Assembly: GCA_964522405.1 (NCBI GenBank)
Contig: CAZFTR010000004.1
Location: 22,349 to 86,348, forward strand
From: an uncultured Gammaproteobacteria bacterium
GTDB taxonomy: Bacteria > Patescibacteriota > Patescibacteriia > Magasanikbacterales > UBA922
Reading direction: 5' to 3'
Length of the DNA stretch: 64,000 bases
Part shown: positions 2,954 through 50,210 of the stretch, piece by piece
Numbering within the stretch: the first letter of the stretch is position 1
Layout of the letters: each line of letters starts with the position of its first letter
Position numbers and translations under genes: made by a program
Notes under the pieces: model-generated
Database searches by the model: none
What the model was told of the DNA's origin: nothing
The model's input: the letters and a program-made list of their open reading frames with translations, nothing else

Positions 2954-3463
2954 TTAAACAATGTACAGCCTTATATTATCATCTTTTTGCTCAGCTTCCC
3001 AGTCTGGGAAGATAAAGCAATGCGAAACAATGCGAGATCCTGGTTTCATTTCTTTTTTAATCTTCTGCATAAGTTTATCCATTTTATTTGAAATAAAATA
3101 AATAAATAGTACATCAACCTCACTTAAATCTGTTTTCCAAAGATCCTCTCTAATTATCTGGGTATTTTTGGAGCCAATAAGTCGCAATCGACTATACCAG
3201 GATAAAATCGGATTAATTTCAACACCAATTGCTTTTTTAACAATAGCCTTAGTCTTTCTAATAACTCTACCATCTCCAGAACCAAGATCCATGAGTATAT
3301 CAGTCTTTCTCAGTTCAGCAATTTTAATCATTTTTTCAAGTTTTTTTGAAAGAGTGGGCACATATGGAGCAGCTTTCACAACAGCAAAGACAGTATATAT
3401 CATAAATACTGCAATAATTATCAATAGAATTGTACCAAAACTAAGTACTAATAAACTTTCCAT
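2954..3463 (-). CDS. Membrane-anchored class I SAM-dependent methyltransferase (paralog 2)
   Basis: One TM helix followed by motif I (ILMDLGSGDGRVI). The C-terminus (KKEMKPGSRIVSHCFIFPDW) is homologous to 2298..2951, so this is a tandem duplication. Confidence 0.6.
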   Translation of the reverse strand: MESLLVLSFGTILLIIIAVFMIYTVFAVVKAAPYVPTLSKKLEKMIKIAELRKTDILMDLGSGDGRVIRKTKAIVKKAIGVEINPILSWYSRLRLIGSKNTQIIREDLWKTDLSEVDVLFIYFISNKMDKLMQKIKKEMKPGSRIVSHCFIFPDWEAEQKDDNIRLYIV

Positions 3464-3533: not shown

Positions 3534-3554
3534 CGAACGACAAGGGGGAAGGAC

Positions 3555-3935
3555 GTGCATCGCGCTTTCAGACGTGAGCATTGCTCGGCCATATACCAGG
3601 GTGATATGGAAGTCGATCTCGGTCGTCTCACCCCGAGTGAGAGATTCGGCCTAGACGTCCTGTTGCGCCTGTTTCGTGGTCGGATCAAGATGAAGGATAC
3701 GGGCATGGGAAATTCAGCATTGGTCTTCCGCCTCTCGGAACTCCGCTGCAGAATGAACTCGAGAGGGCCGGATCTACAGGATCTGACCGTGGAGACAGGT
3801 CTGAACGGTCACATCACACTCTCGACCGGTGATCCGGAATCGGCTCATCGGATGCGCGTGGACTTCAGCGAACCGCCACCGGACGGCGATCATTCGCGCC
3901 ATCGGCGCGTGTTCCCGCCTGACTGGGCCGTGTGA
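3555..3935 (+). CDS. Hypothetical protein encoded in G+C-rich island A
   Basis: 126-aa ORF with GC3-rich codons (CGC, CTC, GAC) in an A+T-rich neighbourhood. An SD-like tract lies upstream, but only 2 nt from the GTG; the internal ATG at 3606 is an alternative start. No recognisable domain. Confidence 0.35.
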   Translation: MHRAFRREHCSAIYQGDMEVDLGRLTPSERFGLDVLLRLFRGRIKMKDTGMGNSALVFRLSELRCRMNSRGPDLQDLTVETGLNGHITLSTGDPESAHRMRVDFSEPPPDGDHSRHRRVFPPDWAV

Positions 3936-3972
3936 GTTACCCACGGTTCTAGTCCTTCGCTGTCCAAGCATC

Positions 3973-4005
3973 GCCCCTGGCGCTGGATTTATCCACGCCA
4001 GGGGT
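3973..4005 (+). terminator. G+C-rich hairpin closing island A
   Basis: CCCCTGGCG-ctggatttatcca-CGCCAGGGG, a perfect 9-bp stem, followed by ttcgccatttatat. Confidence 0.5.
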
Positions 4006-4058
4006 TCGCCATTTATATGGGGTATATAGAGCAACTATGGCACTACTACCAAATACCA

Positions 4059-7148: not shown

Positions 7149-7661
7149 ATGCTAGTGAACAGATCAGATCGCGGCTGGACTGCCGCCTTCACGGTCGGGA
7201 GCTTGCTCCTGATCGCGATGCTCGTTGTGGACTACACGGTTCATGACCTTAAAATGAGAGAGCTGCACCAGGCCGTCGTCACGGACTTCGACGAGTTGGT
7301 GCCGGGCATGTGCTACGGCATGGAGATCGAGAGCGGCAAGTTCCAGGTGGTCTGCATCCACCAGTCGCGGAACTGCCCGGACCCCAAGTCCGACGACTAC
7401 GGCGTGGTCAAGCCAAGCGAGTGCCGCCTCGAACGCCCCGAATGCATCGAGTCGGCCAAGGTCACCGAGTTCGGCGCCCTGCAGTACCCTCAGTGGGTGG
7501 TGGTTGGCGAGAGCTACGAGATCTCGGGAAGCCGCCACACCCTCGACCTCGACGACCAGGACTACTGCGTGTTCACGCCCCACAAGTGGCCTGAGCCGTC
7601 CGACGAGTGGGAGTGGCAGGACGTCATCGAGGACACCGGGGACTCCCCCGACGCGCAATAG
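7149..7661 (+). CDS. Hypothetical signal-anchored Cys-containing protein with acidic C-terminus (G+C-rich island B)
   Basis: AAAGGAAA SD at 7141-7148, then ATG 7149 or GTG 7155 (the ORF-track TTG at 7128 has no SD). Contains an N-terminal TM helix (WTAAFTVGSLLLIAMLVV) and six Cys, with GC3-rich codons. Confidence 0.45.
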   Translation: MLVNRSDRGWTAAFTVGSLLLIAMLVVDYTVHDLKMRELHQAVVTDFDELVPGMCYGMEIESGKFQVVCIHQSRNCPDPKSDDYGVVKPSECRLERPECIESAKVTEFGALQYPQWVVVGESYEISGSRHTLDLDDQDYCVFTPHKWPEPSDEWEWQDVIEDTGDSPDAQ

Positions 7662-7792
7662 CGCAATCCGGCATCCTGCCGGGGCAGCGCGAGATGTGCG
7701 AGATTTTGACGACGAACGACGCCGCCCATCCCGAACTGCTTGAGCATCTAAAATCTGGAAATTCAAGCGGAGGCGGGATGTGCCGCTTAATT

Positions 7793-7827
7793 TAAAAATC
7801 CTACTCATTGTAGGATTTTTATTTTGT
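7793..7827 (+). terminator. Rho-independent terminator of island B
   Basis: AAAATCCTAC-tcatt-GTAGGATTTT followed by TATTTT. Confidence 0.6.
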
Positions 7828-10552: not shown

Positions 10553-10670
10553 GTTTAAACTTGAACAAAATACCCAGTTTAGGTGCTAGGTCTACTAATG
10601 AAGACGTAAAATTCGAAATTTTGTTACAAAATTAACAGAAATTACCAAATTATCCCATAAAATCTCAACC

Positions 10671-10706: not shown

Positions 10707-10886
10707 CTATTCTGCTGGATCTACTGGAGTTTCTCCCCCACCTTCTGGCATTGGAGCTACTTGCTCTCCACCTGCTTGAGTAGACATTTCTCCGCTTCCA
10801 CATGAGCATGTGCTACAAGCTGAACATCCACCACACTCCATGCATGCTGGACCGCTACAACTTGCGCAAGTCTTTAATTCTTCCAT
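10707..10886 (-). CDS. Small Cys-rich (metallothionein-like) protein, not present in the supplied ORF track (59 aa)
   Basis: The reverse-complement translates to MEELKTCASCSGPACMECGGCSACSTCSCGSGEMSTQAGGEQVAPMPEGGGETPVDPAE, with 10 Cys in the first 30 residues. A terminator lies immediately downstream. Confidence 0.45.
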   Translation of the reverse strand: MEELKTCASCSGPACMECGGCSACSTCSCGSGEMSTQAGGEQVAPMPEGGGETPVDPAE

Positions 10887-10965
10887 AGAAAAATTAAGGT
10901 TAAAAATATGTAATAAAGTATAGATTAGAAAAAACCTTTCGTCAAATTTGGATAAATTTCCTTTG

Positions 10966-10999
10966 CTGCACCCGAATCGCCGAAGCGAGACGGGTGCAG
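10966..10999 (-). terminator. Hairpin at the 3' end of the island C gene
   Basis: CTGCACCCG-aatcgccgaagcgagac-GGGTGCAG, a 9-bp G+C-rich stem. Confidence 0.4.
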
Positions 11000-11048
11000 C
11001 GTGAATCAGTAAAAAATCCTGGTGAAAAACCCGGTAGGACCTCGAGTT

Positions 11049-11354
11049 CTAGATGAAGTCGTGCTTGCGACACTTGCGCACCATGTGCAGCGCGCCGTCG
11101 ATGCGCATTGCCGGAATGCCGAGCGCGTAACGCACAACCTTACAGCCGACTTCGCCCAACTGCTCGTAGGCGAGAGCGATCCTGCTCTCCTGACCAAAGA
11201 TCCACTTCACAGCCGAGCACTCGAGAGCAGTGACCCTCTCATTCGCCGTCCCGATGGCCATGATTCCGTCGAGCGTCAACTCTCCGATGACCACAGCGCA
11301 GTCTTGAACCACCAGCTCGCCCATGAACAGAGCACTTCCCAATACTTCTTTCAT
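11049..11354 (-). CDS. Hypothetical protein of G+C-rich island C (101 aa, begins MKEVLGSALFMGELVV...)
   Basis: ATG at 11354 is preceded by GGGGGG and by TTGACA-N16-TATTAT. The longer track start at 11369 lies upstream of the SD. GC3-rich codons. Confidence 0.45.
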   Translation of the reverse strand: MKEVLGSALFMGELVVQDCAVVIGELTLDGIMAIGTANERVTALECSAVKWIFGQESRIALAYEQLGEVGCKVVRYALGIPAMRIDGALHMVRKCRKHDFI

Positions 11355-11385
11355 TGGCCCCCCGACCAATTATTGATCCAGGGAA

Positions 11386-11413
11386 ATAATAGCTCATTTA
11401 TATTTATTGTCAA
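11386..11413 (-). promoter_or_regulatory. Consensus promoter of the island C gene (TTGACA-N16-TATTAT, read on the minus strand)
   Basis: -35 at 11408-11413 and -10 at 11386-11391 (reverse-complement). Confidence 0.45.
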
Positions 11414-11437
11414 CCCTGGCGTTCGCGAACGCCAGGG
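11414..11437. repeat. Perfect 24-bp palindrome CCCTGGCGTTCGCGAACGCCAGGG abutting the island C promoter
   Basis: It shares the CCCTGGCG/CGCCAGGG stem with the island A hairpin and the CGTTCGCG core with the island E palindrome. Confidence 0.6.
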
Positions 11438-11518
11438 TGAACCGAGCAGAAGACAGTACTGAGTCAAAATTAAAAAACTGCCCAAGTGGACAGTTTTTTA
11501 GAAGTAATTCTTCTTTAG

Positions 11519-12823
11519 CTAAATTGCTTCACCTAGGGGTTTGGGCTTTTCTCCTGTTTCTTTCATTACTCCCTTCTCAAACAAAATTGCACCAAGAACA
11601 GTCACAAGAATAACACCAAGAAGTGCAGCTGCTGCCATAGTTTCACTGAGTACATTGTTGGCAATTGCAACTGCTACGAAAACTAAACCAACTTCACCAC
11701 GAATTGACATTGCATAACCAACAAGTTTTCCTTCGTTGCGGTCCTTGAATAAATATTTAACAATATATTTTCCATAGAATCCAAGAACTGTAAATATAAT
11801 TGCATAAATCCAAGCTTTTGGAGACATAATTGCTTCACGGGTAAGCATGGTTCCAATACTTACCAGGAATCCACCAACAAAGATATGTATATATCCCTCG
11901 ATCTTTTCCCAAACTTCATGTTTGATCTCATTATCAACTTTTGAAAGTACCACACCAATACCAAAGGCACCAAGAACAGGCTCAAGACCAACCACAGCTG
12001 CAAGTGCTCCAGCAATAATCAAGGCACCAAAGAAAAATCTAGTATAAGGCCCTGTTGTAGTTTTTACGTAATGCTTATCAAGATATTTGGCAATCTTATC
12101 AGCAACACCCATACTCCACATTAGATAAGCTCCACCAAAGAAAGCAAGAACAGCAATAGCAAGCCAGATAAGACTCATAGCTTCTAGGTGACCTTGAGAT
12201 AATTTTGCAAGCACAGTTAGAACCAGCACACCAAGAATATCATCAATCACAGCAGCCCCAACAATTCTGTTTCCCATGTTTGTACTAAGTTTTCCAGCAG
12301 CTTTTAGAGCTTCTACTGAAAGACCAACTGATGTTGCTGTGAAAATACCACCCAAGAAAATAGCCGGAAGCCATTCCATACCAAGAGCATAATGTCCTAG
12401 AAGCGCAAAAGTAACCAATGGAATAAAGACACCACCAAAAGCAACCAGACTGGCAATCCCAATATTTTTCTTGAGAAGTTCCATGTCAAAATGAAGTCCA
12501 GCTTCAAATAAAATAAAAAGCACACCAGCTAGGCGAGCAATTTCAACTCCGTGAGCATATGGATCAAGAACACCCATAGCTGCAGGACCAGCAATAATAC
12601 CCATTACAATCTTACCTGCCATTGGTGCAATACCAAATACTTTGGCAAGTCTTCCACCAAAAGATGCAAAAACAGCAAGAAATGCAATATCAATCAAAAT
12701 CGGCATGATGGTATTGATCTCATGATGATGACTGTGCAACAAGGCCTCGCGCAAATAGTGCAGACCAATTGCGAATACCACCACTTCTATAGTTAGAAGT
12801 GCTAGTGTCTTCAATTTATTCAT
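11519..12823 (-). CDS. Cation:proton antiporter (CPA2 / Na+/H+ exchanger family)
   Basis: 434 aa with about 12 TM helices; architecture and motifs are Kef/NapA-like. Confidence 0.75.
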   Translation of the reverse strand: MNKLKTLALLTIEVVVFAIGLHYLREALLHSHHHEINTIMPILIDIAFLAVFASFGGRLAKVFGIAPMAGKIVMGIIAGPAAMGVLDPYAHGVEIARLAGVLFILFEAGLHFDMELLKKNIGIASLVAFGGVFIPLVTFALLGHYALGMEWLPAIFLGGIFTATSVGLSVEALKAAGKLSTNMGNRIVGAAVIDDILGVLVLTVLAKLSQGHLEAMSLIWLAIAVLAFFGGAYLMWSMGVADKIAKYLDKHYVKTTTGPYTRFFFGALIIAGALAAVVGLEPVLGAFGIGVVLSKVDNEIKHEVWEKIEGYIHIFVGGFLVSIGTMLTREAIMSPKAWIYAIIFTVLGFYGKYIVKYLFKDRNEGKLVGYAMSIRGEVGLVFVAVAIANNVLSETMAAAALLGVILVTVLGAILFEKGVMKETGEKPKPLGEAI

Positions 12824-13102: not shown

Positions 13103-13849
13103 ATGTTTCTTTTGGAATTCACGAAAAAGCACCCCTACCTGGTAATCGCCAGTGTGGCTCTGACCACTCTGCTGATTGCTGCCATGGTGATGATTCAGCA
13201 GAGGATCGATACCAGCAAGGAGCGGATCGCGACTGCATGTCTCGAGAGAATCGCCAACCCCTGCACCTTCTACAAGGTCTCAGACTCGGGCTACACCTGT
13301 GAGAAGTGGCACGTCGCCGACGGCACTGATTGCAAACAGAGCGCCTGCATGACAGGCGACTGTGTCTGCAAGGACGGCAAGCCGACTTCCGACTCCTGGC
13401 GGGACTGCTCTTCGCCGAGCGATCCCTGTCGGGTCGACGTTTGTGTTCCTGACGACGCTGAAGAGCTGGGCTACAGATGCGTGCCCGGGGTGCATGAGGA
13501 CCGGAATCGCAAGATCTGGCTCGATCACAAGCCCGACTTCACCCCCTGCCTGGACGATGGCATCTGCATCGGACGTACCTGCATTGGCCCCGAAGGTCGC
13601 GTGCTGGCTCCACTACCGATCAAGTTCACCGAAACCAAGGCTCGGGACATGCCGACAGGCTTCGAGCTCAATCTCTGCGGGAACTGCCATCGCTACAGCT
13701 ACGACTGGAACTACAGCGGTCCTGTCACCTGTGGCAGCTGCCACCTGGAAGGCGCCGACATGCTCAACCGATCATCCGATAGACTGCTCTGGCATCTCGA
13801 GATCGAGGAAGGGCTGCCGGCCAAAGAGTTCCTGGGGGAGGTGATGTAA
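13103..13849 (+). CDS. Signal-anchored Cys-rich protein with two CxxCH motifs (putative dihaem c-type cytochrome), G+C-rich island D
   Basis: GGGAGG lies 10 nt before the ATG at 13103 (the ORF-track start at 12998 lies in A+T-rich DNA upstream of the SD). One TM helix, then 20+ Cys including CGNCH and CGSCH. GC3-rich codons. Confidence 0.4.
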   Translation: MFLLEFTKKHPYLVIASVALTTLLIAAMVMIQQRIDTSKERIATACLERIANPCTFYKVSDSGYTCEKWHVADGTDCKQSACMTGDCVCKDGKPTSDSWRDCSSPSDPCRVDVCVPDDAEELGYRCVPGVHEDRNRKIWLDHKPDFTPCLDDGICIGRTCIGPEGRVLAPLPIKFTETKARDMPTGFELNLCGNCHRYSYDWNYSGPVTCGSCHLEGADMLNRSSDRLLWHLEIEEGLPAKEFLGEVM

Positions 13850-13978
13850 TGCCGCAGACACGAGCACGAGGGCCACCAAGTAGAGGCGCCGGCACCAGCC
13901 CCGGCGGGAGCATGTCAACTGCTGCTCTGCACCGGCTGGCGACTCTCTTATTATTTTAATTTTAGAATGATGAGAAAG

Positions 13979-25373: not shown

Positions 25374-25706
25374 ATGGCAAAAGGAGACAAGAATCGCGGT
25401 CTGCGGCGCCGACGGCGGCGGCAGGAGGCCAAGAAGCAACGTCAGCTGCGGCAGGCGATCGCCACCATGGAGGAGCGACGCGGCGAAGAGCCTCAGTGGA
25501 CCTGCGGTGCCAACATCGGTACCCATCGAGAGCCCAAGCCCTGCGGCACCAAGGTGCTGATGACGAAGGGCAGCTGCCCCAAAGGCCACACCTGGCCGAA
25601 GATGACGGGCGGCAAGGCTCGCGAGCAGGCCGGCGTGGATCACGGCCGCGGCCACGGCTACCGACCCTACACACCGCCCCGCGACGACTACGACTACCCC
25701 TGGTAG
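25374..25706 (+). CDS. Hypothetical highly basic protein with a Cys/His cluster (G+C-rich island F)
   Basis: AGGAGA lies 8 nt before the ATG. N-terminal RRRRRRQEAKKQRQLRQ, then C-x6-H...C...C-x3-H. GC3-rich codons. Confidence 0.4.
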   Translation: MAKGDKNRGLRRRRRRQEAKKQRQLRQAIATMEERRGEEPQWTCGANIGTHREPKPCGTKVLMTKGSCPKGHTWPKMTGGKAREQAGVDHGRGHGYRPYTPPRDDYDYPW

Positions 25707-25744
25707 GCAGAAGGAGGCTTCAGAACCTACGATCGCACCCCCAC

Positions 25745-25776
25745 CCCCGTGTCTGTTCTCGAGAAGACGCGGGGGC
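25745..25776 (+). terminator. G+C-rich hairpin closing island F
   Basis: CCCCCGTGTCT-gttctcgag-AAGACGCGGGGG (one mismatch), followed by cagacagacttttctt. Confidence 0.45.
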
Positions 25777-34784: not shown

Positions 34785-36266
34785 ATGCAGAATAGACTTA
34801 CAACTAAGGCGATTTTCTTTGATAAACAAACCTGGCTTTTATTTGCAGGGTTTTTCTTGGCTAGAATTGTCTCCTTTGCATTGCATGGGCATCAGATAAT
34901 ACAAGCACTACTTGTATTTTTTATTTTAATGCTACTGGGCATTTTATATTATAAAAATGAATACTATGGCTGGGCCATTGTACTCACAGAACTATTCTTG
35001 GGCGGCTCTGGGCATTTTATAGAATTTTTTGGATTGTCACTACGAACTTGTATAGTCCTAACTTTTATAACACTTTGGGCGCTTTTTAATATTCTTGATC
35101 CCGGTCGCAAACATCGATTAAAAATTCCTCATGGTCTGTTCTGGATTTTTATACCTTTGATCATTTTTGCTGCTATTTCAGCAGTAATAGGCTTGTTCAA
35201 TGGACACTCAGTTGCACGTGTGATCCAAGATTTTATGCCTTTTAGTTTTTTGGTACTTCTTCTCCCGGCTTATCATATGTTTGAAAATGAGAAGATACGT
35301 CATCATTTTATACGACTTGTAATGGTATTTATAATTGGATCAGCCCTCTTTGCTCTTTTTACCTTTGTTTTATACAGACTTGGCCTAAGTGAGTTGCAAG
35401 ATCCATTTTATAAATGGATGAGAGATGTTGCTATGGCAAAAATAACTCAAGTTACCCCATTTTTCTATCGAGTGGTCTTGCCAGAGCATTTACTAAGTGT
35501 TCCTGTGATTCTGATAACCATGTCTCTACTAATGAGAGACGAGAAACACCATACTATGTGGAGAATCTTACTCTTTTTTGGATTGTTCTTATTAGCTATA
35601 AATTTTTCACGAGCTTATCTATTGGGTTTTGCTGTTGGAATTTTAGTTCTCAAGTACAGACACAGCTTTAAGCAATGGTTCAAAGAATCAGCTGTTGCTG
35701 TCCTATTATTTCTGTTTATTTTTTCATCTATGTCTGTCATATCAAGCATAGGAAAAAGTACTGGCCTGGAAATACTAGGATTAAGAATTGGGAGCATTGT
35801 AAGCCCTCAAACTGAAGTAAGTACCAATGCTAGAATGGAAAAACTTGCTCCCATCATATCCTTGATAAGAAAGCATCCTTTTGTTGGAAATGGACTGGGA
35901 GCCAGTATTTTATACTATGACAAAACTATTGGCGCAGTAACCCCAAGTATTCACTTTGATTGGGGCTACTTAGAAATGTGGGCTGAACTTGGTATCTTGG
36001 GTAGTGTTTGGCTCTTACTCATAGCGTTATTTATTGTTTTTGAGATAATTAAAAAAATCAGAACTGTTGCTGATTTTCATGATTTCAAAGTTGGACTTTT
36101 GGCAGCAATTGTATCAATGTTAATTATTAATATTACCACACCTGCACTGTTTCATACTCTAAGTATCTTTGCTTTAACATTTGTTATTGCCTTTATTACC
36201 AGACCTGTGGAAGTATTTGATTATTTTATTACTATGATTTACAGAATATTTAATAGATTAGATTAA
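34785..36266 (+). CDS. Polytopic membrane protein (O-antigen ligase/Wzy-like topology)
   Basis: 493 aa, 10 or more TM helices and a large loop near the C-terminal third. Confidence 0.45.
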   Translation: MQNRLTTKAIFFDKQTWLLFAGFFLARIVSFALHGHQIIQALLVFFILMLLGILYYKNEYYGWAIVLTELFLGGSGHFIEFFGLSLRTCIVLTFITLWALFNILDPGRKHRLKIPHGLFWIFIPLIIFAAISAVIGLFNGHSVARVIQDFMPFSFLVLLLPAYHMFENEKIRHHFIRLVMVFIIGSALFALFTFVLYRLGLSELQDPFYKWMRDVAMAKITQVTPFFYRVVLPEHLLSVPVILITMSLLMRDEKHHTMWRILLFFGLFLLAINFSRAYLLGFAVGILVLKYRHSFKQWFKESAVAVLLFLFIFSSMSVISSIGKSTGLEILGLRIGSIVSPQTEVSTNARMEKLAPIISLIRKHPFVGNGLGASILYYDKTIGAVTPSIHFDWGYLEMWAELGILGSVWLLLIALFIVFEIIKKIRTVADFHDFKVGLLAAIVSMLIINITTPALFHTLSIFALTFVIAFITRPVEVFDYFITMIYRIFNRLD

Positions 36267-36291
36267 GCTTAATCTAATCTATTAAATACTT

Positions 36292-38390: not shown

Positions 38391-38419
38391 TTGACAAACT
38401 GATTTTTTTGAGTATACTT
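38391..38419 (+). promoter_or_regulatory. Consensus promoter TTGACA-N17-TATACT of island H, immediately divergent from the Mur ligase start codon
   Basis: Same hexamers as the island B promoter; 38391-38396 and 38414-38419. Confidence 0.45.
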
Positions 38420-38424
38420 TTGGC

Positions 38425-38634
38425 ATGCGGTCTATGAAGTACGCACTCCCGATTAAGTTCGGGGATCTGCCAATGTGGTCGCGGTTCCAGTTCAGCGGAA
38501 CCTCGCGCTGGATCAAGACTGGTCACAAGTCCGCTGCGACGCTGACACCGGCGCCTCGTAGCTCCACCTTCTCCAACTCCTGTGGCGCGCCGCGCCGAGT
38601 GGATAGGTGCACGACCGTCTTCCCCTGCATCTAG
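38425..38634 (+). CDS. Questionable small ORF (69 aa) in G+C-rich island H
   Basis: It follows the consensus promoter but has no SD, and the product is low-complexity and S/R/T-rich. The island may instead be noncoding. Confidence 0.2.
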   Translation: MRSMKYALPIKFGDLPMWSRFQFSGTSRWIKTGHKSAATLTPAPRSSTFSNSCGAPRRVDRCTTVFPCI

Positions 38635-38676
38635 GGACACCTGATCCGTCTCTCGAAGCATCAATGATCGCCGCTG

Positions 38677-38700
38677 CCGGGGGTTCTTCGGAACCCCTGG
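38677..38700. other. Very stable hairpin with a UUCG tetraloop at the distal edge of island H
   Basis: CCGGGGGTTC-ttcg-GAACCCCTGG, 10 bp with one G·U pair, and no flanking T-run. Confidence 0.5.
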
Positions 38701-38777
38701 CAAAACTCATAATTGAACTAATCTCTAGATAAAATCTAGAGATTTTTTATCACAATTTAGCTAAATTTGCAATAGAT

Positions 38778-49840: not shown

Positions 49841-50059
49841 ATGGTTGTCACCATCATCCAAGTAGTAATGGTTGTTCTCATGTTTCTGGCCGGCCTCTGT
49901 CTGATCATTGATGGCGCGCTCCGGGTTTTCAAGCCCAGCCTCAGCCACAGGCAGATGATTCCTCGAGCCGACTACTGGAAGCAGCGCATGGCAGGACTGA
50001 TCGAGATGGCTGTTGGCTCTGCCCTGCTCGCCATCCTGCTGACCATTGCACTGGTCTGA
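49841..50059 (+). CDS. Small two-TM membrane protein (72 aa) in G+C-rich island I
   Basis: GAGGAG lies about 6 nt before the ATG at 49841 (the ORF-track start at 49808 lies upstream of the SD). Product is MVVTIIQVVMVVLMFLAGL...LLAILLTIALV. GC3-rich codons. G+C-rich hairpins GGCTGCG/CGCAGCC follow at 50080-50101. Confidence 0.45.
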   Translation: MVVTIIQVVMVVLMFLAGLCLIIDGALRVFKPSLSHRQMIPRADYWKQRMAGLIEMAVGSALLAILLTIALV

Positions 50060-50210
50060 AACATGAAACAACTGATTCGGCTGCGCCGCAGACGCAGCCT
50101 CGCTCATTCTGGGGCTTTCTCCCCACCAACCACAACAAGGAGGTGAGGACGAACTCTGCACTCGTCCCTCCGAATATTTTCAGTAGTTATAATGCAAATT
50201 GAGGAGTATT

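Follow-up and report, generated by a model that had tools for sequence, protein, structure and literature searches.

Island C, a GC-rich single-gene islet with its own putative promoter and terminal hairpin in the core chromosome of a Candidatus Magasanikbacteria bacterium

What kind of genetic unit is a short, GC-rich, single-gene segment that lies by itself between two host genes, with a stable hairpin at one end and a perfect palindrome at the other? The question is raised by a locus, here called island C, in the AT-rich genome (36% GC) of a member of Candidatus Magasanikbacteria (CPR/Patescibacteria). The 64-kb window, i.e. the whole stretch of DNA analysed, otherwise holds core functions (an ATP synthase operon, aminoacyl-tRNA synthetases, PriA, def/fmt, a Mur ligase, and P-type ATPases). 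An earlier note on this DNA had pointed out that paired structured ends are what a transposable or cassette-like unit would have, and that the palindrome could equally be an operator.

Here, we examine the gene, its predicted signals, its counterparts in the window, and the corresponding slots of relatives. We consider it probable, on balance, that island C came in by lateral transfer and is a moron-like islet, an autonomous transcription unit with a single gene, occupying a variable intergenic slot.

Anatomy and coding content of island C

Island C is surrounded by housekeeping chromosome (ATP synthase, transporters, and aminoacyl-tRNA synthetases) and sits in a slot between the terminator of a Na+/H+ exchanger gene (11519..12823; Pfam Na_H_Exchanger, E = 3e-48) and the promoter of a gene for a small Cys-rich peptide. 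The upstream host boundary of the slot is the exchanger gene's intrinsic terminator (11471..11500, minus strand), which a terminator scan resolves into an AT-rich, 13-bp stem followed by a T run. The downstream host boundary is a host-type promoter, TTGACG-N17-TATACT (10917..10945, minus strand; consensus scan), predicted to serve the 59-aa Cys-rich peptide gene (10707..10886); Cys-rich peptides are found repeatedly in this slot among relatives. Three independent Logan assemblies (SRR8146440, SRR8146441, and SRR31802803) are 100% identical across island C, which establishes that it is real DNA and neither an assembly artefact nor a chimera.

The single gene of island C is a minus-strand open reading frame (ORF) of 101 codons (11049..11354; MKEVLGSALFMGELVV...), specifying a protein with a pI of 6.1, a GRAVY of +0.45, and four Cys residues. 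Its description in the earlier note as an orphan is borne out by every search made. A word search of 5.8 billion clusters and a full HMMER search of 1.84 billion representatives each recovered nothing but the protein itself; it has zero matches in Pfam, NCBIfam, PHROGs, PADLOC, and PDB sequences; phage and plasmid sequences gave no tblastn match; and IMG/VR contains no match to peptide patterns of the protein or to the exact palindrome discussed below. An AlphaFold2 single-sequence model attained a pLDDT of 45.8, too poor for a fold search. The protein has no convincing transmembrane segment, and the product is predicted to be a soluble orphan protein.

GC content at the three codon positions of the ORF (GC1/2/3) is 0.60/0.38/0.75 (chi-square p = 4e-7), and the GC3 of 0.75 compares with 0.21-0.25 in host genes. 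This three-base periodicity, combined with the high GC3, indicates that the ORF is a true coding sequence shaped by a GC-rich mutational regime.

The signals that flank the gene form an orderly series. A sigma-70-type promoter (11386..11413, minus strand) consists of TTGACA (11413..11408), a 16-nt spacer, and TATTAT (11391..11386), and agrees with the consensus at 11 of 12 positions (consensus scan); the earlier note had already recognised it, along with the run of six G residues downstream, and both assignments stand. Six matches of this quality occur in the window against 2.6 in simulation, so the match alone is not rare; this promoter is credible because it is sited 32 nt upstream of an ATG with a Shine-Dalgarno (SD) sequence. 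The 5' untranslated region (UTR; 11355..11385, minus strand) contains that G6 SD (11363..11358), 3 nt before the ATG, and folds at -14.2 kcal/mol (z = -2.4), with CCCUG pairing with the G run in a small hairpin that may partly sequester the SD.

Downstream of the stop codon, the 3' UTR (11001..11048, minus strand) includes two T runs and folds at -9 kcal/mol; the T runs were considered as an intrinsic terminator and rejected, the hairpin being insignificant (z = -0.12). The 3' UTR leads into a terminal, 36-nt, GC-rich hairpin (GCTGCACCCG...; 10965..11000, minus strand), composed of two 16-nt arms (10965-10980 and 10985-11000) and a UUCG loop, without a U-tract. This structure, which the earlier note had placed within 1 nt of these borders (10966-10999), folds at -29.4 kcal/mol (z = -6.3). 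The foreign GC-rich block stops exactly at its last base, and the -35 hexamer of the next promoter is found 19 nt farther on. The hairpin is likely to be a 3'-end-forming, stabilising, or insulating element; here, as for the promoter and the SD, the proposed role is read from consensus matches and folding.

Taken as a working unit, island C would operate as follows. The near-consensus, host-type sigma-70 promoter would fire ~25 nt upstream of the G6 SD, and the resulting mRNA would encode the 101-aa protein. The transcript would end at, or be protected by, the very stable, UUCG-capped hairpin that closes the foreign GC-rich DNA, and the same hairpin would shield the next promoter, 19 nt away. 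The palindrome at the other end would be a second GC hairpin of the same class, acting as a back-up insulator that blocks read-through out of the exchanger gene, or remaining as the terminal hairpin of an earlier islet in this slot.

GC-rich islets in the window and in relatives

Island C has close structural counterparts. Two-state GC segmentation, from which all islet borders were taken, delimits its GC block at 10965-11367 (58% GC versus 39% in the 300-nt flanks) and reveals at least seven GC-rich islets in the 64-kb window, each 280-820 bp long, 58-69% GC, and located in an intergenic region. The architecture of island C is repeated in the six others. The GC block begins between -21 and +45 nt from a start codon in all seven islets and ends, also in all seven, at a GC hairpin that lacks a U-tract, 67-125 nt past the stop codon; in six, the end of the block is the 3' base of the hairpin, and in islet A it lies 6 nt beyond. 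The hairpins themselves lie 40-125 nt after the stop codon, and two have UUCG loops. Upstream, AT-rich promoters with a perfect TTGACA -35 hexamer precede five of the seven islets (A, B, C, F, and G), and the six best promoters of the window (11/12 matches) include three that drive islets and one that drives tRNA-Lys.

This repetition changes how the two ends of island C are to be read. Its 3' hairpin is the ordinary end module of the islet class, whereas the 5' palindrome is an extra feature that island C alone possesses among the seven islets of the window, and the two structures have no sequence in common (compare ACCCTGGCGTTCG... with GCTGCACCCG...). The paired ends of the earlier note are, therefore, not truly a pair.

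The terminal hairpins of the seven islets have no common sequence family, and an all-versus-all comparison of 27 islet ORFs uncovered no protein families. One pair of proteins from relatives (L009 and L020) had appeared similar (E = 0.003), but the similarity was lost after multiple testing. Likewise, an apparent enrichment of CTCGAG in the islets (12 observed versus 2.7 expected) was discarded, as five-mer/codon bias predicts 11.7 occurrences. In database searches, the sister islet proteins B170 and D248 proved to be orphans, too, and neither D248 nor a 190-aa islet protein of a relative (L009) matched phages or plasmids. Several sister islets encode membrane-anchored or Cys-rich proteins; because of these, one may guess, by analogy, that the 101-aa protein is a strain-specific accessory or host-interaction factor.

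The islet proteins of B, C, and D are thus all without a homologue. Had they been transferred recently from a GC-rich lineage that has been sequenced, this would be odd, and it speaks against the islet reading.

Full-text literature searches returned no account of GC-rich islets in CPR bacteria, Magasanikbacteria included, nor any prior description of a dense population of uniform GC-rich orphan islets.

The same chromosomal neighbourhood could be compared across 54 related loci (25 from genomes and 29 from metagenomes), with 64-83% protein identity in the Na+/H+ exchanger (NaH). These loci belong to Magasanikbacteria metagenome-assembled genomes and have the conserved order atpD-atpC-NaH-ABC-GATase; it is the exchanger next to island C that assigns the organism to Candidatus Magasanikbacteria. 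Island C DNA is absent from all 54. The NaH-ABC gap measures 967 bp in the window, 288 bp in L026, and 178 bp in L014, in which the slot is empty. Elsewhere, the NaH-ABC and atpC-NaH slots are filled with other, unrelated GC-rich ORFs (L005, L009, L011, L020, L026, and L004), for instance one of 76 aa in L005 (11441-11671) and one of 190 aa in L009 (3701-4273; GC3 0.86); slots of the same relatives also hold AT-rich genes for small Cys-rich peptides.

A search of GTDB genomes and JGI metagenomes for more closely related strains without the island yielded a nearest neighbour protein that is ~83% identical. A comparison with island-free relatives, as the earlier note had suggested, is informative in part: it supplies the empty slot of L014, but the empty-site junction is not alignable because the nearest neighbour protein is only ~83% identical. 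A sister islet in the same slot permits a finer view. L005 is filled and L006 and L031 are empty, at an NaH nucleotide identity to L005 of 85-89%, and the extra DNA of L005 is a whole unit—an AT-rich promoter, an AAGGAGG SD, a GC-rich ORF, a GC hairpin, and a T-tract terminator—placed between the NaH terminator and the conserved TTTTTTGTTGGACAAAA. From this sister islet and from the composition of island C, we infer that island C was inserted recently.

The most economical account of such islets would be illegitimate acquisition of foreign genes, followed by deletion that trims the inserts to their functional parts in a streamlined genome. Random illegitimate insertion would not explain the strict shape of the islets, from start codon to terminal hairpin, unless deletion trimmed them later.

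Rival readings of the palindrome and of the unit

The palindrome is the feature on which opinion may differ most. The earlier note had described a perfect 24-bp palindrome (CCCTGGCGTTCGCGAACGCCAGGG, 11414-11437) beside the -35 box; this is correct, and the symmetry extends by a further base pair to 26 bp (11413..11438), with arms ACCCTGGCGTTCG and CGAACGCCAGGGT, 69% GC, and no loop. The first T of the -35 hexamer doubles as the last base of the palindrome, so that the two elements share 1 nt. Perfect palindromes of at least 18 bp number two in the 64 kb, and ~0.001 would be expected at the length of this one (by our own arithmetic). Folded as an RNA hairpin, it reaches -25 kcal/mol (z = -3.9).

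Mobile DNA often encodes small proteins that bring their own palindromic operators with them. The palindrome could, accordingly, be an operator for a dimeric regulator—possibly the 101-aa protein itself, as an autoregulator—that controls the island C promoter. The dyad is perfect, is fused to the -35 hexamer, and is centred ~46 nt upstream of the predicted start site; it has islet-type composition, is contiguous with the islet's own promoter, and seems to travel with the gene; and a T-tract terminator already lies 33 nt upstream, which would make a second terminator redundant. Set against these points, no DNA-binding domain was detected in the 101-aa protein (Pfam/profile and PDB sequence searches), and a loop-free, 69% GC, 26-bp dyad is atypical of operators.

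Furthermore, the 8-bp stem of the palindrome (CCCTGGCG/CGCCAGGG) has one other occurrence in the window, in islet A's 3' hairpin (3974-4004), which is in terminator position between convergent genes. There, the stem encloses a 13-nt loop, compared with an 8-nt gap in island C, a shift that a folded structure can absorb but a dimer site of fixed geometry cannot, and the flanks do not align; a related arm, CCCTGGC, is present in the 3' hairpin of islet F. Because the stem is reused with variable spacing, we favour a structural hairpin over an operator of fixed geometry.

The palindrome motif is absent from all 54 related loci. Of the suggestion that the palindrome could equally be an operator, the position of the dyad at the -35 box holds, but the parity does not: a hairpin of insulating or terminator type is the probable reading, an operator role is less likely, and we regard the latter as possible though doubtful. 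It would in any case be compatible with the islet reading of the unit as a whole. As an alternative to an insulator, the palindrome could be the terminal hairpin left by a lost neighbouring islet. A host terminator already precedes the palindrome, and an insulator at that place looks redundant.

A second set of alternatives concerns the origin of the unit. The shape of the islets invites the wider proposal that Magasanikbacteria chromosomes are peppered with transcript-shaped foreign units, GC-rich orphan ORFs that mostly stand behind a near-consensus, native-type promoter. They might be installed by an unrecognised form of gene capture, in which recombination or priming would take place at the terminal hairpin and the palindrome of island C would have belonged to a neighbouring unit since deleted; alternatively, their GC-richness might be actively maintained and not a sign of recent import. 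We think this improbable. In its specific form, capture would mean that foreign mRNAs, or segments comprising an ORF and its terminator, were copied or recombined by an unrecognised mechanism into intergenic slots behind native-type promoters, the hairpin being the priming or recombination end. The foreign block does run from about the start codon to the terminal hairpin in all seven islets (exactly so in six, with 6 nt more in islet A), and an AT-rich, host-like character is common to the promoters and to the distal terminator of L005.

However, the 48 larger ORFs scanned in the window include no reverse transcriptase or dedicated recombinase, the islet junctions bear no poly(A) or primer remnants, and a streamlined genome biased towards deletion could reduce whatever is inserted to the parts that function. 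The L005 indel, moreover, includes promoter and terminator, which may simply be part of the transferred unit. Capture of this kind is, in our judgement, very unlikely.

Equally improbable is the reading that island C is a non-autonomous element or cassette, with its hairpins as recombination sites of the IS200/IS605 type (PATE), the REP/RAYT type, or the integron attC type. Lack of both target-site duplications (TSDs) and terminal inverted repeats (TIRs) fits single-strand Y1 transposons, and island C lacks both. The TSD search, for which the earlier note had called at the island boundaries, was negative: the two borders share no direct match longer than 7 nt (AAAAAAC), a length equalled by 23% of random window pairs. 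No TIRs were found either, the best candidate being 10 nt at 90% (11002-11011/11457-11466), off the compositional borders. The reading can also draw on the stable hairpins close to both ends of island C, on the resemblance of an ORF with a 3' hairpin to an integron cassette, on the fact that the islets all end at a hairpin, and on the stem common to islets A and C.

Against this, the hairpins of island C are unrelated, and one recombinase could, therefore, not recognise both. Island C is single-copy, with no second copy in the window or in the 54 related loci, and the terminal hairpins of the seven islets are not a sequence family. A scan of the 48 larger ORFs of the window detected no TnpA, TnpB, RAYT, or IntI in the 64 kb, nor any integrase, transposase, reverse transcriptase, or phage gene; there were no PHROG matches, and island C is not in phage or prophage surroundings.

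As for cassettes, the hairpins do not have attC R''/R' ends (RYYYAAC...GTTRRRY) or extrahelical bases, attC-type AAC...GTT arms are missing from the seven islet junctions, none of which carries G|TTRRRY, and island C has perfectly or near-perfectly paired hairpins of 26 and 36 nt, compared with 57-141 nt for attC. Island C is equipped with a promoter of its own, and the islets occur one at a time across the window, with no IntI, attI, or cassette array. Two narrower candidates were rejected: a DNA transposon or MITE (no TIR, no TSD, single copy, and no transposase in 64 kb) and a REP element (the exact CCCTGGCG stem is confined to two hairpins in 64 kb, and relatives lack it). What survives of the proposal of a transposable or cassette-like unit is that island C is a foreign, self-contained gene unit that is absent from relatives; transposability does not, as TSD, TIR, second copy, and recombinase are all wanting.

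Finally, a GC-rich block between the genes of an AT-rich genome is classically taken as a signal of noncoding RNA, but the reading of the segment as a structured noncoding RNA or junk with an accidental ORF, to which a 146-aa ORF open on the opposite (plus) strand and the zero homologues available for testing selection might also lend weight, is scarcely credible given the periodicity in the minus frame (p = 4e-7, GC3 > GC1 > GC2), a promoter and SD correctly placed for the 101-aa frame, the lack of any Rfam match within 10950-11440 at the gathering score or even at E <= 1, and the fact that the plus-strand ORF is a mirror frame running through the promoter and palindrome.

Relation to known systems and significance

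The islet reading of island C finds its nearest parallel in phage morons (Juhala/Hendrix 2000, as summarised in PMC4378225). A moron is a single gene with a promoter and a terminator, situated between genes that are adjacent in related genomes, deviant in composition, and of unknown acquisition mechanism (PMC4378225). Island C resembles morons in having a single ORF, its own sigma-70 promoter, and a 3' stem-loop; in being placed between two genes that adjoin each other in relatives; and in its sharply deviant composition. Additionally, as with morons, different units occupy one slot in related genomes, and neither a recombinase target nor repeats are evident. The differences are that island C is in a CPR core chromosome and not in a phage or prophage, which places it outside the strict definition of a moron, and that the islets are GC-rich in an AT-rich host, have 3' hairpins without U-tracts, and encode, in all cases tested, orphan proteins.

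Morons are defined in phages, and there is no prophage here, which speaks against the islet reading.

Islands of horizontal gene transfer (HGT) are common in Patescibacteria, and HGT accounts for up to ~13% of genomes (PMC12455944). Like known genomic islets and ORFan HGT insertions, island C is small, strain-specific, compositionally deviant, and encodes a hypothetical protein. The islets differ from these in their density (at least seven in 64 kb), in their uniform architecture from start codon to hairpin, in their mostly near-consensus promoters, and in having no donor or homologue detected in 15 billion proteins.

Other systems offer more partial likenesses. Integron cassettes also are small, contain a mostly orphan ORF of foreign composition, and have an imperfect palindrome at the end of the unit; island C, in contrast, has no attC consensus, extrahelical bases, IntI, attI, or array, possesses its own promoter, and belongs to a set of islets that are scattered singly. 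IS200/IS605-derived PATE and REP/RAYT elements share with island C GC-rich subterminal or extragenic hairpins and the lack of target duplication and TIR, but the hairpins of island C are unrelated, the element is single-copy, there is no Y1 transposase or TnpB, and the repeated stem occurs just twice in 64 kb.

The closest match for the islet hairpins as such is with the U-tract-less ('I-shaped') terminators and 3' stabilisers of GC-rich bacteria, which likewise are very stable GC stems without a T run. The CPR host, however, has canonical T-tract terminators, and the islet hairpins may be RNA-stability or insulator elements only.

Considered alone, island C is a modest result: it is an orphan accessory gene whose regulatory signals are neatly arranged, and no new mobile element. 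The broader picture is that, within 64 kb of its core chromosome, a streamlined CPR genome accommodates at least seven foreign genes that have strong predicted promoters and no homologues and that the corresponding slots of relatives are filled differently. If expressed, the islets would constitute a fast-turnover accessory proteome, and the membrane-anchored or Cys-rich proteins among their products could underlie strain-specific host or surface interactions of these episymbiotic bacteria. Their uniform shape, from ORF to terminal hairpin, provides a testable handle on how foreign genes are acquired and trimmed in streamlined genomes.

Sister islets in the window

Besides island C, an islet with its GC-rich block at 10965-11367, the window carries six more GC-rich, single-ORF islets with 59-69% GC, designated in order A, B, D, E, F, and G (3534-4010, 7170-7786, 13129-13947, 25395-25776, 38422-38701, and 49886-50172). 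All six share an anatomy with island C: the block starts near a start codon and ends at a GC hairpin without a U-tract. A perfect TTGACA -35 hexamer is found upstream of islets A, B, F, and G. Comparison of the islet proteins among themselves revealed no relationship, and those of islets B and D are, like that of island C, complete orphans.

The sequence CCCTGGC(G) occurs within hairpin stems of islets A, C, and F (3974-4004, 11413-11438, and 38676-38702, respectively), with differing loops, and in none of the 54 loci from related genomes and metagenomes; the three islets may share a donor, or the sequence may be a recognition motif. Apart from that of island C, the only long perfect palindrome in the window is an AT-rich one of 42 bp at 36247-36288 (TATTTAATAGATTAGATTAAG followed directly by CTTAATCTAATCTATTAAATA), which is flanked by convergent genes for Wzy_C-like and GT2 glycosyltransferase proteins.

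The same slots in related Magasanikbacteria

In related Magasanikbacteria, the gaps between the Na+/H+ exchanger and ABC exporter genes and between atpC and the exchanger gene hold GC-rich orphan ORFs other than those of the window (L005 11401-11757; L009 3701-4393; L011 9305-9890; L020 5701-6537; L026 5673-6009; L004 6435-7120). For the L005 islet, L006 and L031 supply an empty-site comparison.

Small Cys-rich peptides of host-like composition are encoded repeatedly between exchanger and exporter, both in the window (10707-10886, minus strand) and in relatives (L007 ~3047-3175; L008 ~7467-7620; L012 ~1697-1850 and ~1970-2060). None reached threshold against NCBIfam; these peptides adjoining the exporter may be metal-binding or RiPP-like precursors. 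Conserved 5' of the exporter gene, in all relatives, is the non-coding motif TGTAACA ... TTTACGTCT(T/A)C ... TAT.TAGA with a hairpin after it (window ~10560-10640, minus strand; equivalent positions in L007, L008, L012, L014, and L026). This conserved element probably serves as a promoter, operator, or leader.

Expression, annotation, and products of individual islets

Only 6 nt separate the end of the -10 box (TATACT) of islet F from its ATG (38391-38427), with no SD sequence, and its mRNA is probably leaderless. In the public contig, automatic gene calling chose for islet B an antisense 214-aa ORF (7164-7808, minus strand; L001 4974-5618) over the sense ORF (7149-7661, plus strand), which has a GC3 of 0.89, a promoter, and an SD sequence; GC-rich islets within AT-rich genomes are likely mis-annotated in databases.

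The islet D protein (13103-13849; 248 aa) has an N-terminal transmembrane helix and 18 cysteines, includes two CxxCH motifs, and matches Cytochrome_C7 weakly (E = 0.011). If this product is a heme-binding surface protein, it would be unusual for a CPR bacterium.
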